Shown here piece by piece: positions 39,001 through 48,000 of a stretch of DNA of 64,000 bases. Numbering within the stretch: position 1 is the stretch's first letter; every line of letters starts with the position of its first letter. The stretch covers positions 32,001-96,000 of the forward strand of contig JBBFKX010000001.1 of assembly GCA_037481815.1 (NCBI GenBank), given 5' to 3'. This DNA comes from a candidate division WOR-3 bacterium. Lineage in GTDB: Bacteria; Hydrothermota; 32-111. Position numbers: made by a program.

Positions 39001-42000
39001 ATAAAAAACCAGACAATAACATAAAACGGAGAGAGCCCACCAGTTAAGGAAAGATGTTCTTTGGGAAGGTTTTCTTTTAAAATATTAAAGTCCCCAATGT
39101 TTTTGTAAGAGAATAAGAAAAGAAAAATAAACCCAAGAAACATAACGAAAAATTGAAAGAGATCCGTTTTTACATCTGTGACAAAACCACCTTTGAGTAT
39201 GAACGGAAGGATGATCAAAAGTGATATCAGCATCGAAACAAACAGGTTTAAAGAAAAGATTTTTGAAAAGATTATTCCTATCATCAAAATGTAAGGTGCT
39301 GGTGAAGAGAGAATCAAAACGATTATCGCTGACAGAATTGAAATCTTTTTGTCATACTCTTGTTCGATCTTTTGAGGGATCGTGAGAAGTGATGTCTCTC
39401 TTATCCTTTTAGCGAAAAGTATAGCGAAAAGAAATCCAAAAAAATAGTAAGGGACTCCCTGTGTCACCCAGTTGACGATACCATAATTATAGGTGAACTC
39501 TCCTACACCGAGTATTCCACCATACCATGTTGATACATTTGTTGCTATGAAAAGGAATAGTCCGGTTTTCCTGCTGTTGATCAAAAAAGAATCTTTCCCT
39601 TTCACATTTTTTGATGCAAAATAGGAAATCATTAACAGAAAAAAGAAAAATAAAAAAATCACAAAAATATCTAAACTCTGGATCATAATTTTAAATTATA
39701 GTAATTTAGAAGGATTATTCAAGGGAAGAAAAATTTTTTGTTAAACTCACAACAAATTTTAATTTTTCATAAGAACAATACATACAACTATTGACTTTTT
39801 AAAAAGGTCATTTAAAATTTAAATCATAAAAGGAGGTATTATGAAGAGTATTTCAAAAATTCTAACTATCGCCCCCCCCGATACTTACAGATAGTTTTTG
39901 TTTTCATTTTAGGTTTTGCATTAATTTTTTGTTTTGGAGATAACTTGAGTATTGAAGACATCAATTGTTGGGATTATAGTGATTTAAGTTTTGAATTAAA
40001 TTTAGATAATATTCAACAAGATGGTAATGATTATGGAGAAATTTCATGGAGTTTTTGCTATGGAATTGAAAAATCAATCTATAAATTAAAACATAAATAT
40101 GATTTTGAAATCGCTAATTCTATAGCGAATAATATAAATTTAATCTTATCTTTAAGGGATGATCGAAGAGGAGTCCATAGTTATATAGATAGCAGTGGAA
40201 CAGAAAGAACATTAAAAACATGGAGAGGGTTAAAATATTCATTGATTGAAAGAAATGATTCATTGTTTACCTATAATATCCATATATGTGGTTATGACTC
40301 TTCCTTGGATCGTTTTATTTATTATGGACCTTCTCATGGAATTCCTGCAAAATATTTTGCTTACCCAGATCTGGTTTTAACAGGAAGAATTTTACAAACA
40401 ATTTTAAGATTTGTAATTGCAATGGACACTATTGGCAAATGGGATGAAATTGGAGGTTGGTCTTACAGGTCAAAATTGATATATGATTGTAAAGAGAGTT
40501 ATAATGAATATATTCAATGGTTTCAGGATACAACAATAAATAACGATTCATATTGTGGGGCGTGGAAACACATATTTGATGTAATTGATATTAACTTTAT
40601 AAATGATGAAGTTAAAATTGACACTTTTTACCCACAATATCCTTTTAGAGCAAAGATGAGGCACCCTTTTAATAAAAATTCAACTATGGCAGATGCGGGA
40701 CTATTTCTTTATGAGCTCACAAAAGAAAATATATATTTAGAACAGACGAAAAAATTTGCTCATTATTTCAGAAATAACATTGATGACTCTACTTTTGTTT
40801 TTGGAAATGGCACTGATTCCACCTTTCTCTGGGCATATTCTGTCAATTATGTTAAAGGAAAAGCGGATGATATCTCTCATGGTGGACTTTCATTTATTTT
40901 TATGAACGATTATCACAAAAAATTCCCTGATGATGTTTTTGGAAAAGATGATATGATTAAAATGTTCAATACAATAAAATATTTAATGGTTATTCCTGGT
41001 TCAGAAACTACAGGAAATTATAGTTATTATCCATATCTTGACGGTTCTTATCATGATAGTTTAAAATATTTTCCTTTTTCCTCAGATCTTAAATATCAAA
41101 TGTTTAAATTTTATGGGTTGACTGAATATAAACCCCAAACATTTGAGTTTATTACAGGTATTATTGATAGTTTCAATCCTGAAGACGGTTATTTTCAATA
41201 TTATAAGAGATTTTATACTCCTTTTTCTGTAAAAATAGGAATTTTACCGGTGTCTGTTTTGCCTGTAGATAGTCAACAAATTGAAACTTTTGTAAATGGT
41301 GACAGGGTGTATGTTGAACTTAATTCGTTGTATAATTATACAGGATATAGAGATACCATTGTTATTGAATTATATGATCCAGATAAAAATGCTGAATATC
41401 ATCTAAAGGATACTCTTTACAATGTTTTGAAAGGAATAACATATAAAATTCCCTTTGGTAATTTAGTATTTGATGGAGAAACACTTAAAACAGACACTTT
41501 AGTTGTAAAGGCTTATGCATTAAGAGGTGGAGCGTTAAAATGTCCATTTTTTTCAGATACTTTACCTCTGGTAGCAAGAGATACAGTATATTTGTTTTCT
41601 CCAACTGAAATTTCTGTTCTTAAAAATAATACTTTTAATGTTTATGCTTGTTATCGAAACAAGAATATCGATCTTTTTGGAATAGATAGTGTGAAAATAA
41701 CAATCACTTATGATACGGTAAATGATGATGGGTCAATTGAAAAAGCAACACTAATCAAATACACAGATAGCAATGGAAAAGCATACTTCAATTTAAGAAC
41801 AAATACAACCTATCCAGTAATAATAAGAGCAGATAAATTAGGATATTTTACAGCGGTTGATACCTTGAAACCATTTATGTGGTCAACAACAAATGTTGCC
41901 CTGGGCCCTAGCAGTAGCACCCATCTGGTTAAACAAAATGGGTTACTTCATCTGGCTTATTCTGATGGTGATAGTATTGTATATGGTAGGAGCAAGGATT

Positions 42001-45000: not shown

Positions 45001-48000
45001 GTTGATTCAATAAGGTTTAAAAATCAGGAGTTTTTTGTCGATACTGAACTAACTTATCCATTAAAAATATATCCTGATGATAGTATGAAAATCAAAACAG
45101 GTTTTTATGCAGAAAGTACGGGATACTATCAGAGCGAAATGTATGTATATGGAGATAAAAACAAATATATAACAACATTGAAGGGAGGATTAGGAGTTGA
45201 ATGCAGGATAGACAGCATTAAAGCATCAGATGGTTTTGTAGCACAAAGTGGAGTTGATGGTGATGATTATGTAATAATATATTTCCATGGTCTAACCAAT
45301 CAACCAAAAATAGATAGCAGTAATATAGATAAAATATTACAATTAAACAATGAACATTCATGGTTAAATATAGATAGTGCCTACTGGCTTCCTCGAATAA
45401 TTCAGAAGGATAGGTTAAGGATAGAATTCAGAGATACATCTTCCACAGTATTGGTTGGAGATACAGTCTATCCAGATAGTTTAACAATACAGGAAACTTT
45501 ATTGAAGGTTCCATGCTTTAACCCAACAGTTGTAAGTGGTAGTTTTAGTCCGGCGGGAAATAATGAAAAAAAACTGTTAATTGAAGTTGAAAATAATGAT
45601 TTAAAAATCGAAATGTCTGAACAATACATAATATGGAATACCCTTACAGAAGGAATGTTAATGATATACGATATAACAGGAAGAGAAGTAGTAAGAGAAG
45701 AATCTAAAGGGGGTAAACATAAAACGAATATAAAAAATTTAAAAAAAGGAATTTATTTTATAAAGTTGAAAACACCTTCACATACAATTGTAAGAAAGTT
45801 CTCGAAATTTGAATAAATAAAAAACCTGGGGACGGTGCTTGACTTTTTGACATTTTTGTTTTTTGTTTAAGGATAGTTTAAAGACATTTTGAAAAAATAG
45901 AATACTCTTTCAACAGAATGGGAGGATAAATGAAAAAGATTTTCTTAATTTCCTCACTAATTTTTTTGAGTTTATTTATTTTTGCATCGAAGAGTTCATA
46001 TAGTTGGGATGAGATAAAAACATCAGAATTTAAAAATTTATTTGATCAAAAAAATTTAGAATGGGCAACAGATAGTTTAAATGTTGCAGGAATCGGCAGA
46101 GTGCCATATTTTGGAAGTGCTTACGATGTTTTCAGAGTTGATAGTTTTGCTTATGTTTCTATGGGATACAGTTTTGTAATTTTAAATGTGAAAGATCCCC
46201 AGAATCCAGTTCTTGTAGGATTTCTTGATATGAGTGTTATTCTGGATAAAATTTTTGTTTTGGGAAATTATGCTTATGTGGTCGATTCCAGTTCTAAAAT
46301 ATGGGTTATAGATGTTTCAAACCCTTCGAATCCAGTTGAAGTGACTTCTTTTGATACACCTGGTGATGCTGAAGGAATTTTTGTATATAAAGTATATCTT
46401 TTTGTTGCTGATGGTGATTCCGGATTACGGATCCTTGATGTATCAAATCCAGCAAATCCCGTAAAAACAGGGTATTATATCACTCCCGGTTATGCTTACG
46501 ATGTTTATGTTTTTGCTGATTATGCTTATATTGCTGATGGTGGTGGAGGTTTAAGAGTAGTCGATGTATCAGATCCTTCGACTCCAAAAGAAACAGGATA
46601 TTGTATAACAACTGGTTCTGTTGAAAAGGTTTTCATCTCATTAACCTGCGCTTATGTGATCACAAATAATGGTTTATTTGACTTCAAAATGAATATAATA
46701 GATGTGACCGATCCATCAACTCCAGAAGAAAAAGGTTCTTATTCAACTTTTAATTTTATAGAGGATCTGCATATTTCGGGTGCCTATGCTTATCTTACAG
46801 AATGGGAGTATGACTCAGAAACTTATGAGTTGAATATTTTAAATATTGCTGACCCTGCAAATATCGTTCAGATTGGTAGCACTGGACTTTATCCGTTTCC
46901 TGAAAATATTTATGTTAAAAGTGGTTACGCTTATGTTGCGAATGAAGGTTATGGATTGATAATAGTTGATGTGACAACCCCGACCTCACCAGTAAAGATA
47001 AGTAGTTATGATACTCCGACTTCAGCAGAAGGAGTTGTCGTTTCAGATAATTACGCTTATGTTGCAAATGATGATTTTGGATTGAAAATATATGATGTTT
47101 CTACTCCTGTAAATCCAAACCCATCAGGAAGTTATCTTTCTGCTTCTCCAGCCTTAGGAGTATACAAATCTGGTAATTATGCGTATGTTGTTAGTGGATA
47201 TTATATTTATGATATAGACCTTATGAAGTTCAACATACTTGATGTGAGTGATCCTTCGAACCCTGTAAAAGTTGGTTCCTTTGGAGATTGGGGGTTTGCA
47301 TACGATGTTTATGTATCAGGTAATTACGCTTACATTGCTGACTACGATTATGGATTAAGGATAATCGATATCTCTGATTTAACAAAACCAAAACAGGTTG
47401 TTTCTTATTCAACCGCAGGACATCTTTATGATGTTTATATTTCCTCTAATTACGCTTTTGTTGCTGCTAGTAGTGCAGGGTTAAGAGTGATCGATATATC
47501 AAATCCATTAAGCCCAATAGAGGTGGGATACTGCGATACACCAGGAAACGCTTTGAATGTTTATATTTCAAATGGATATGCTTATATCGCTGATAGCAAC
47601 TGTGGATTGAGAATCATAAATATCAACAATCCAGCAAATCCTGTTGAGGTTGGTTTTTATGATACTCCAGGAAATGCAAATGGTATTTATGTTTCCAAGG
47701 GATATGCTTATGTTGCTGATGGTAGCAGTGGACTGCGTATAATTGATGTAAAAAATCCAGCAAATCCTGTTGAAGTGGGTTATTATGATACACCTGGTTA
47801 TTCCAATGATGTTTTTGTATATGGTGATAATGTTTATGTTACAGATTTTAGAGGAATTTACATATTAGATTTTCTATTGACCGGGATCGACAAAAACATT
47901 GATCCGGATAATAAAAATCAAACGAGTTTAAATCTTGTGGTTTCAAACGATCAGTTAAGTTATAATGCACAGAATAAGAATGAACTCGTGATTTACGATA

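Follow-up and report, generated by a model that had tools for sequence, protein, structure and literature searches.

A near-identical three-gene operon allele for secreted or surface proteins in several species-level lineages of one WOR-3 genus

Introduction

The opa genes of Neisseria are many scattered single genes with a pentamer repeat, and in gene-specific sweeps studied in Vibrio and freshwater lakes one allele reportedly spreads by recombination without the rest of the genome. In the available text of PMC12755884, divergence troughs among Synechococcus species from Yellowstone hot springs are attributed to transfer and selective sweeps, with some hybrid genes devoid of diversity (hard sweeps). 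As there, the genomes studied here have diverged backbones in which a few chromosomal segments scarcely differ between species. According to the available part of PMC13183285, slippage of repeats in 5' coding sequence switches the surface genes of the Neisseria opa family, and their alleles recombine within and between species after DNA uptake; our locus appears to resemble them in these respects. It likewise recalls capsule switching in Streptococcus pneumoniae, where, as far as the accessible text of PMC8321556 goes, a multi-gene surface locus is swapped whole through crossovers in conserved flanks with varying ends.

Materials and Methods

The window is the whole stretch of DNA that was analysed, 64,000 nucleotides of contig C1 (JBBFKX010000001.1) of a candidate division WOR-3 genome, G000 (GCA_037481815.1). 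Window position 1 is C1 position 32,001, and positions are those of the window unless C1 is named. G000 was aligned with G001, G002, G003 and G004 over 34,500-53,500, and identity to G000 was taken in 250-bp windows. Comparison extended over the whole genome of G004, 440 kb of G002 and 85 kb of G003. Sequencing runs were searched with the words of positions 35,500-43,500 as the query, and 24 runs were listed. Four runs of four other studies were examined at contig level as Logan contigs, in which rare variants are dropped and each contig has a single depth figure. The name lepA rests on our reading of the C-terminal sequence, without a family scan.

Results

Gene order is colinear with G000 over 85-130 kb in G002, G003 and G004, which places the operon (Table 1) at the same chromosomal locus in these genomes. 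Genes 2 and 3 carry type A sorting domains, with 33.3 and 38.5 bits to Por_Secre_tail (cut-off 27) and 47.3 and 35.1 bits to TIGR04183 (cut-off 23). The domain of gene 1 is borderline, with 26.6 bits to CHU_C (cut-off 27) or 30.4 bits in a six-frame search, and 22.6 bits to TIGR04183, just under its cut-off of 23; no other domain was recognised in gene 1 and no Atlas match was found for it. The exact G000 protein of gene 2 belongs to a 12-member 90% cluster named WOR-3 / TA06. Over about 120 bp the operon's upstream region matches the leader of a paralogous cassette (C1 480.4 kb) at 81%. Regarding the secretion machinery, a 1,816-aa ORF matches SprA_N above its cut-off (30.5 bits), and a PorU-like match reaches 227 bits against a cut-off of 420.

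Table 1. Features of the shared block and its flanks, in window positions.
Feature	Position	Strand	Evidence or remark
lepA-like ORF	32,283-34,073		conserved 3' end holds left edge of G000/G003 tract
Extra tract common to G000 and G003 only	33,957-39,510	.	alignment; 100% save about 6 SNPs at 38,300-38,697
Sodium:solute symporter gene	38,286-39,686	-	Pfam SSF, E 1.1e-26
Core shared block (block 1)	39,511-47,760	.	alignment of G000-G004; also identical in metagenome contigs L156 and L157
Operon upstream region	39,687-39,840	+	ribosome-binding site AAGGAGG
Gene 1, large protein with C-terminal T9SS sorting domain (borderline)	39,841-43,673	+	out of frame in G000
Poly-C tract	39,872-39,879	+	codons 11-13 of gene 1; 8 C in G000
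Patch private to G000	43,607-44,022	.	alignment; 30 SNPs (about 7%), end of gene 1 to start of gene 2
Hairpin	43,696-43,716		9-bp stem, just upstream of gene 2
Gene 2, FG-GAP repeat protein with T9SS type A sorting domain	43,726-45,816	+
28-nt repeat	45,829-45,856	+	GGGACGGTGCTTGAC-TTTTT-GACATTTT, 73 nt upstream of gene 3
Gene 3, nine LVIVD repeats (choice-of-anchor B) and T9SS type A sorting domain	45,930-48,146	+
tRNA-Met (CAT)	48,252-48,327	+	right bound of operon

Across the 8,250 bp of the core block, G001 and G002 are identical to G003 and G004 save two to three isolated SNPs (43,869, 45,824 and 47,389) and the length of the C tract. The silent (synonymous) and intergenic sites are identical too. 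Between G003 and G004 identity is unbroken over 39,421-48,494 except for the SNP at 47,389 and the C tract (10 versus 8), and G001 equals G002 over the full aligned 19 kb apart from about six isolated differences, the two being 86-89% identical elsewhere. G000 carries the common allele over 39,511-43,606 and 44,023-45,380 with two private SNPs (41,586 and 42,317). The private patch between these stretches has no paralogous source in G000 and reads with the common letters in all four metagenome runs examined; it is probably a remnant of G000's own allele. From 45,381 to 47,700 G000 is only 90-97.6% like the other four genomes, its gene 3 being an allele of its own. A preliminary description had the segment 39,522-43,520 as 100% identical in four genomes bar the C tract, which is near-exact save for the two private SNPs of G000, and had near-identity running on to C1 79.7 kb, which is exact among G001-G004 and fails for G000. 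A perfect run of 2,165 bp cannot arise by chance at a backbone identity of 78%. Homologous genes of the sister genus (G012 and G013) show 70-73% DNA identity, the level to be expected from ordinary divergence.

Left of about 39,500, G001, G002 and G004 are 70-87% identical to G000 in the 250-bp windows, and from 39,750 they are 100% identical. The last clustered difference falls at 39,510 in G001 and G002 and at 39,420 in G004, giving breakpoints at 39,510/39,511 and 39,420/39,421 within the first 60-90 codons of the symporter gene, which the shared identity enters by 175-265 bp. In G003 it extends 5.5 kb further, into housekeeping genes. Three left edges (33,957 in the lepA-like gene, 39,421 and 39,511 in the symporter gene) are matched by two right edges, 47,761 inside gene 3 and 48,495 beyond tRNA-Met, the latter gene being crossed without a difference, to 48,494, in G003, G004 and record FWPV01000242.1. 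The earlier claim that tract boundaries differ by genome is thus borne out, with all ends in conserved flanking genes, while the 76-90% identity claimed for the adjacent gene applies to three of the four genomes and not to G003, which equals G000 from about 33,957 on. G005 lacks the block and has an empty site in the order symporter, tRNA-Met, aminotransferase. Together with this empty site, colinear homologues of genes 1 and 2 in the sister genus (69-74% protein identity) lead us to regard the locus as ancestral and not as a new arrival. Family scans of ORFs within 39.7-48.2 kb recognised no mobility gene of the integrase or transposase families, and searches of viral contigs, phage records and plasmid records gave no match to a carrier of the block.

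The genomes are otherwise far apart, with median 1-kb identities of 78.4% between G000 and G004 (1,395 aligned windows) and 89.5% between G000 and G002 (403 aligned windows). Just 16 of the 1,395 windows reach at least 95%, every one of them in block 1 or at C1 847-855 kb, and this confinement to two blocks rules out genome-wide mosaicism. At a threshold of at least 97%, G000 and G002 share 5 of 403 windows (440 kb of G002), all within block 1, and over C1 15-140 kb block 1 is the sole such block in G002, G003 and G004. The second near-identical block, previously described as common to G002 and G003, was seen again in the part examined, from about C1 841 kb on. Identity to G000 is about 100% over 841.0-855.0 kb in G003, 841.0-848.5 kb in G002 and 846.2-855.3 kb in G004; G001 (86-91%) and G005 (69-89%) are at background. 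The G004 tract of block 2 holds ptb and buk, and those of G002 and G003 hold symporter and oxidoreductase genes. The part common to G002, G003 and G004 (846.2-848.5 kb) is ptb-buk and not a cargo gene, which weakens an account driven by cargo.

T9SS genes are over-represented in these blocks: ORFs with the sorting domain (CTD) take up 7.45% of the genome, against 85% of the near-identical windows, and a randomly placed 8-kb block would reach 71% CTD or more with a probability of 0.021. In G004 a single contig carries both blocks at a distance of about 66 kb; they may therefore not be independent, and the association counts two cases at best. T9SS-CTD ORFs make up at least 80% of each of 76 aligned 1-kb windows, and 63 of these fall short of 95% identity to G004 (group median 77.7%); the paralogous poly-C cassette at C1 473-480 kb is not common to G000 and G004. 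The general statement that T9SS cassettes lie in near-identical blocks thus fits two blocks and is too broad for the rest. Nor are the blocks cassette-shaped, given the ptb and buk genes of block 2 and the 5.5 kb of housekeeping DNA in the G003 tract.

The five-nucleotide spacer of the 28-nt repeat is clade-specific. It reads TTTTT in 33 of 35 copies in G000, in all 22 in G001 and in 33 of 34 in G002. Among G004 copies 24 of 25 read AGTGT or TCTGT, the lone TTTTT copy being the one inside the block. G003 has AGTGT or AGTAT in 17 of 21 copies and TTTTT in four, one in the block and three in DNA 96-99.7% identical to G000. These counts agree with the preliminary description, in which the block's copy was of G000 type in genomes whose own copies are of another type. 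On this sequence evidence the G000/G001/G002 clade would be the donor side, with G003 and G004 as recipients.

The poly-C tract has 8 C in G000, 9 in G001, 10 in G002, 10 in G003 and 8 in G004, and 8 in each of two metagenome contigs. Only 9 C connects the ATG at 39,841 with the long frame (1,277 aa, hydrophobic N-terminus); with 8 C or 10 C a stop follows after 17 or 34 codons, respectively. Gene 1 is consequently out of frame in six of seven assemblies, with the full ORF in G001 alone. Around the tract G001 and G002 differ in nothing else, the next differences being at 35,685 and 50,055. One contig of run X5 ends at 39,871, at the tract, for which low depth is an equally possible cause. These are the sequence features of a phase-variable contingency locus, and slippage in the tract would switch gene 1 on and off.

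In the run search, 20 of the 24 listed runs, from 15 studies, contain at least half of the query words. In about nine of the 20 the share is 0.51-0.56, which is the block's own share of the query, so that they apparently hold the block without the G000 flank; their sample types are oil field, crude oil, hot spring, groundwater and terrestrial, and two small runs labelled with organism names are among them. X16, the one run of these nine or so examined at contig level, has a 44,417-base contig (depth 39) that joins a flank resembling G000 at about 83% to the block, which it follows up to 47,077. The X3 contigs are interrupted at 39,511-39,540, with a rise in depth from 10.4 to 18.2, as expected if two backbones in the sample share the block. 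In all, the junctions are supported by Logan contigs, which are assembled contigs and not reads, from four runs of four studies.

Discussion

We consider it highly probable that repeated, very recent homologous recombination brought a single allele of the operon, with its three genes for secreted or surface proteins, into several species-level lineages within one WOR-3 genus. The operon occupies one chromosomal site between the symporter gene and tRNA-Met; in this reading, incoming DNA displaced the resident allele there through crossovers in conserved genes to its left and right, and such crossovers account for each genome's own tract ends. G000 may be a partial recipient that kept its own gene 3 and the 416-bp patch. 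The likeliest route would be DNA uptake by ComEC and DprA, whose genes are present, although ComEC, which 10 of 14 control genomes also have, is uninformative. Mismatch repair is intact, with both MutS and MutL present; crossing over at 20% divergence should therefore be rare, and the number of events is surprising. The spread may have been driven by positive selection on the cell surface, with phage or grazer pressure or attachment as suggested agents. Recent exchange across species, as first proposed, is the only reading that fits the identical silent and intergenic sites, the differing edges and the recurrence of the same junctions in independent contigs.

The earlier caveats, that the assemblies might be chimeric and that three regions of each kind had been compared, are largely lifted by the whole-genome comparison of G000 with G004 and by the contigs from four other studies. 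It is extremely unlikely that assembly or binning collapsed or mis-joined one abundant organism's allele into the contigs of co-occurring relatives. Every genome here is a metagenome-assembled genome (MAG), the X3 graph branches exactly at the block edge with a step in depth, indicating that several backbones co-occur, and FWPV01000242.1 is a patchwork whose segments equal G000/G003, then G001/G002, then all, then G003, much as a chimeric walk would look. The estimated contamination of G003, 3%, also counts on this side. However, a de Bruijn join requires shared words, and flanks at 75-85% identity could not be joined unless the true allele were near-identical at the joint. The X16 contig crosses unbranched from diverged flanking DNA into the block and covers 8.2 kb of it, the G004 arrangement recurs in two records of unequal extent (LGFX01000005.1 and LDZU01006064.1), the words of the block apparently occur without the G000 flank in about nine runs, and C-tract length differs among otherwise identical copies. 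The mosaics of G003 and FWPV01000242.1 may in part be chimeric joins across the shared 8 kb, and since co-occurring species have these 8 kb in common, which left flank belongs to which right flank cannot be relied on in such short-read contigs. Also very unlikely, if a little less so, is a self-mobile or vector-borne island that a site-specific recombinase inserts at tRNA-Met or at the 28-nt repeat, with a phage, plasmid or vesicle as carrier. The operon adjoins a tRNA gene and G005 lacks it, and the uniform spacer within clades suggests young repeat copies. Moreover, a 5.5-kb insert with a T9SS gene lies between two direct repeat copies in G003 where G000 has one copy, and a 6.7-kb defence island of G000 has inverted copies near both ends where G003 and G004 have an empty site. 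Block 1 is nevertheless not bounded by such copies: its repeat lies in the middle, block 2 has none, and identity runs into the symporter gene, through housekeeping genes in G003 and beyond the tRNA in G003 and G004, with ends that vary. Neither an integrase or transposase family within 39.7-48.2 kb nor a viral, phage or plasmid carrier came to light. A tRNA-associated genomic island in particular is disfavoured; the tRNA-Met adjacency and the G005 empty site fit it, but the operon's three ORFs matched no integrase family and the block's borders vary.

Homologous exchange being the preferred reading, it is unlikely that the site is a neutral recombination hot spot at which the shared allele drifted to high frequency with no selection on the cargo. 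The left flank is likewise a patchwork of short tracts, G001 and G002 agree far beyond the operon, block 2 covers housekeeping genes, and gene 1 is off in most assemblies, itself a poor fit with simple positive selection for its product. Set against this, a single allele with 2-3 SNPs in 8 kb stands on at least four backbones and in runs of 15 studies from several habitats, and drift is an improbable cause among species that exchange little else, as the few windows common to G000 and G004 indicate. The spread over 15 studies is suggestive of a selective sweep, in contigs that give the consensus only. A stronger version, in which one putatively phase-variable operon allele swept at least four WOR-3 species-level lineages across oil-field, hot-spring, groundwater and sludge settings within fewer than 3 substitutions per 8 kb, perhaps helped by a 28-nt-repeat cassette system, is decidedly doubtful; such a system is conceivable because the spacer is uniform per clade and T9SS and defence-gene inserts have copies at their edges.

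The block is a clean natural case in which genes have crossed a deep species boundary within an uncultured phylum, with backbones 78% identical and 8 kb only 2-3 letters apart, and it bears on how sharp bacterial species limits are. It directs attention to proteins of the cell surface as the traits able to pass between species, and it could serve as a timer for the dispersal of WOR-3 cells or DNA between subsurface and engineered habitats. Shared stretches of this kind also make flank pairing in short-read MAGs unreliable.

With regard to known systems, gene-specific sweeps in Vibrio and lakes reportedly concern single species or nascent populations, whereas the WOR-3 case crosses genomes at 78-90% identity. 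The block has the marks of a divergence trough, namely an abrupt identity step at the same locus with varying ends that is exceptional genome-wide in the comparison with G004. Unlike the Synechococcus case, as far as the available text of PMC12755884 describes it, the WOR-3 case is known from MAGs and contigs, its backbone divergence is 10-22%, and its cargo is a putatively phase-variable secreted-protein operon whose same allele recurs in runs of 15 studies and several habitats. Unlike in Neisseria opa, the predicted switch is a poly-C tract before a three-gene operon with one paralogous copy, and the organism is a free-living uncultured lineage instead of a host-adapted pathogen. The pneumococcal capsule locus, in the available portion of PMC8321556, maintains many alleles under diversifying selection, whereas here one allele is common to several species. 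Taken together, the WOR-3 block adds one more instance of a process already known, in which selection and uptake of DNA would be the driving force and the route of transfer.

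Organization of the operon locus

In the source genome, G000 (1.58 Mb, ~31% G+C), the three-gene operon encoding cargo of the type IX secretion system (T9SS) is arranged as listed in the table below, where positions are those of the window (position on contig C1 minus 32,000). The type A sorting domain, a C-terminal signal of T9SS cargo, has 48 six-frame matches in G000, 33 of them above cut-off, and the genome also yields a SprA_N match above cut-off and a PorU-like match below it. The protein cluster of gene 2 carries the names "candidate division WOR-3 bacterium" and "candidate division TA06 bacterium 32_111", and for the function of gene 1 a protein atlas search gave no usable match.

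Features of the operon locus in G000 (window positions)
Feature	Position	Strand	Remarks
Sodium:solute symporter gene	38,286-39,686	minus	
Upstream region of operon			154 bp with ribosome-binding site; 3' end abuts the ATG at 39,841
ATG of gene 1	39,841		
Poly-C run	39,872-39,879		8 C in G000
Gene 1	ends 43,673		sole recognised domain a C-terminal T9SS sorting domain, borderline score
Gene 2	43,726-45,816		FG-GAP repeats, type A sorting domain
28-nt repeat	45,829-45,856		
Gene 3	45,930-48,146		nine LVIVD repeats, type A sorting domain
tRNA-Met	48,252-48,327		
Aminotransferase gene, obg, dprA	right of tRNA-Met		

The C tract measures 8, 9, 10, 10 and 8 in G000 and its four congeneric species-level genomes G001-G004, respectively, and 8 in each of two metagenome contigs. 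It is the sole length difference within several kilobases of otherwise identical DNA, and only a tract of 9 C gives the 1,277-aa gene 1 protein with its hydrophobic N-terminus.

Extent and edges of the shared block

An alignment of the five congeners covered window 34,500-53,500. Left of ~39,500 the genomes fall into three backbones (G000 with G003, G001 with G002, and G004 by itself) with mutual identities of 68-91%. The clustered differences end at 39,510 in G001 and G002 and at 39,420 in G004, and directly beyond these points all five genomes are identical. Toward the right, G001/G002 and G003/G004 are identical up to 47,760 except for 2-3 single SNPs, while G003 and G004 remain identical up to 48,494, beyond the tRNA-Met gene, bar one SNP. 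Beyond 50 kb G003 clusters with G004 (85-90%), and G000 with G001/G002 (86-93%). The identity of G003 with G000 extends left to ~33,957, where it ends in the conserved 3'-terminal stretch of a lepA-like gene.

G000 itself departs from the allele common to G001-G004. It has private SNPs at 41,586 and 42,317, a patch of 30 private SNPs at 43,607-44,022, and its own version of 45,381-47,700, with 90-97.6% identity to the common allele. Since this divergence resembles that of the backbone between G000 and G001/G002 (median 89.5%), we read the 45,381-47,700 version as a leftover of the native G000 allele, and the 30-SNP patch probably as another. Gene conversion from a paralogue was considered as the source of the patch and was ruled out, there being no second copy in G000.

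The G001 and G002 stretches (L003 and L004) are near-identical across the whole aligned 19 kb, with about six isolated differences (three near 35.6-35.7 kb, others at 50,055 and 50,063) in addition to the C tract. This is contrasted by an identity of only 86-89% in two other regions, which implies either a far larger shared tract here or assemblies that are not independent.

Independent sequence data and the possibility of assembly artefacts

The 50-mer at 39,700 is present in two further metagenome contigs. LDZU01006064.1 equals G004 across the entire 20 kb examined. FWPV01000242.1 has a left flank of a sixth kind, then matches G000/G003 over 35,682-37,502 and G001/G002 over 38,779-39,871, enters the block, and on its right side (47,761-49,750) equals G003 bar one SNP. 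At 35,682-35,685, where this contig turns identical to G000/G003, the last clustered differences between G001 and G002 are also found, so that a breakpoint common to both comparisons may lie here.

A word search of public sequencing runs with window 35,500-43,500 as the query found at least half of the words in 20 of the 24 listed runs, from 15 studies; about nine listed runs contain 0.51-0.56 of the words, which is the share of the query taken up by the block. For four runs, each from a separate study, Logan contigs were aligned on window 32,000-51,000, gaps in their cover being given no weight; X16 is the sole one of these that belongs to the roughly nine runs with, apparently, the block alone. 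One of its contigs (44,417 bases, depth 39) passes from a flank ~83% like G000 through 38,860-47,077. An X10 contig spans 38,880-40,353 with zero differences, and in X3 contigs break at 39,511-39,540 with a step in depth from 10.4 to 18.2. At the sites private to G000, the common letters are present in all four runs. As a chimeric join requires shared words, assembly chimeras could mix up the linkage of one flank to the other but cannot generate the common allele.

Near-identity is confined to few loci, at least for G004

The comparison of G000 with G004 used all 25 G004 contigs (1.86 Mb), and 1,395 of 1,570 1-kb windows could be aligned (median identity 78.4%). Identity reaches at least 95% in 16 windows, split evenly between C1:72-79 kb and C1:847-854 kb. 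Perfect runs of at least 200 bp are limited to these two blocks plus three spots in C2:1.6-8.9 kb. Between G000 and G002, for which 440 kb were compared, 5 of 403 windows have at least 97% identity, all within the operon block; for G003 the comparison rests on one 85-kb contig and small loci. Within C1:15-140 kb the operon block is the sole such block in G002, G003 and G004. Exchange is therefore confined to a few loci rather than being genome-wide mosaicism, at least for G004.

The longest of the C2 spots is a 1,005-bp perfect run (C2:1,609-2,613, matching L097:1,182-2,186, where G004 contig C5 ends). It represents an insertion sequence in decay, which retains terminal inverted repeats and DDE-transposase-like remnants. 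The two shorter patches, C2:5,135-5,559 and 8,476-8,906, lie in a background of 80-85%. Ribosomal RNA was rejected as the cause of these runs: they lack 16S primer motifs, their G+C is 0.28-0.38, and their G004 counterpart had no Rfam match.

The second block is ~100% identical between G000 and G003 over C1:841.0-855.0 kb, G002 over C1:841.0-848.5 kb and G004 over C1:846.2-855.3 kb, with no more than background identity in G001 and in G005, a relative that lacks the operon. The part in common with G004 contains ptb, buk and genes for a GH18-SH3 protein and a 1,371-aa protein, the latter two products with sorting domains; the G002/G003 tracts add a symporter gene and the genes for two oxidoreductase subunits. 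Both blocks lie on a single G004 contig with ~66 kb between them, and may have arrived there together, on a long DNA molecule taken up in a single event.

ORFs with sorting domains make up 7.45% of G000, compared with 85% of the near-identical windows. The probability that a random 8-kb block is at least 71% covered by such ORFs is 0.021, or 4e-4 for two blocks if independent. The preliminary description had placed T9SS cassettes in general within blocks identical between species. This is borne out at the two blocks and does not extend further, as 63 of 76 aligned cargo windows are below 95% identity to G004 (group median 77.7%) and a paralogous three-gene cassette with the same leader peptide design, at C1:473-480 kb, lies outside any block shared with G004. 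The C tract of this paralogous cassette (C1:480,417-480,424, minus strand) has eight C and is likewise out of frame.

The 28-nt repeat and the probable direction of transfer

The 28-nt repeat is near-invariant within a genome, but the 5-nt spacer is clade-specific (TTTTT versus AGTGT).

Spacers of the 28-nt repeat
Genome	Copies	TTTTT	Other spacers
G000	35	33	2 (AATTT, TTTAT)
G001	22	22	0
G002	34	33	1 (ATTTT)
G003	21	4	17 (AGTGT, AGTAT)
G004	25	1	24 (AGTGT, TCTGT)
G005	0		

The sole TTTTT copy of G004 is the one in the block, as is one of the four in G003. The other three G003 copies, predicted to be imported, all lie within DNA 96-99.7% identical to G000. A TTTTT copy in the block of AGTGT-type genomes, together with these three copies, points to the TTTTT clade (G000/G001/G002) as the donor side of the common allele.

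The 34-35 G000 copies are spread over C1, C2, C3 and 13 of 17 small contigs, and nine of them stand in the same orientation amid small ORFs at C3:273.4-279.1 kb. The first 15 nt are also found in two sister-genus genomes, with 7 and 10 occurrences. We rejected a role as a simple promoter, as only 12 of 34 copies have a ribosome-binding site and an ORF (40 aa or longer) within 400 nt downstream. The small contigs C4-C20 are not alternative repeat junctions either; they are unique fragments, several of them colinear with G004 contigs across the repeat.

Copies of the repeat also border two insertions. A 6.7-kb island specific to G000 (window 11,682-18,400), encoding a type III restriction enzyme, DarT, a macro-domain protein and a DNA methylase, has inverted copies ~90-120 bp from either end; its site is empty in G003 and G004, and G002 carries a different 7.6-kb insert with T9SS-like genes at this position. 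In G003:C13:47,147-55,737 (L159, L160), compared with G000 C2:119.9-122.9 kb, a 5.5-kb insert is flanked by two direct TTTTT-type copies where G000 has one. Its T9SS gene is 94.8% identical to G000 C1:475.5-476.7 kb, and its flanks match G000 at 99.7% and 96% identity.

Probable mechanism of exchange and comparison with described cases

No mobility gene families were recognised within the operon block, its edges vary between genomes and fall in conserved genes, the site is empty in G005, and genes 1 and 2 have colinear homologues (69-74% protein identity) in a sister genus. Collectively this fits homologous recombination, which would have replaced alleles at an old locus. The genome encodes ComEC and DprA, ComEC being common among control genomes. 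Loss of mismatch repair might have eased crossover between species; MutS, MutS2 and MutL are all present, and relaxed repair is thus not the reason. A search for carriers found no match among viral contigs, phage records and plasmid records.

We found no paper connecting WOR-3 with T9SS, and none combining type IX secretion, phase variation and homopolymeric tracts. The operon block is a fresh, unusually clean case of an already described kind of interspecies exchange, for which we infer both selection on the allele and the transfer route. Among the described cases compared, the closest is that of hot-spring Synechococcus species (PMC12755884), with "divergence troughs" between them and hybrid genes that underwent hard sweeps. 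Neisseria opa and pneumococcal capsule switching may be regarded as functional analogues.
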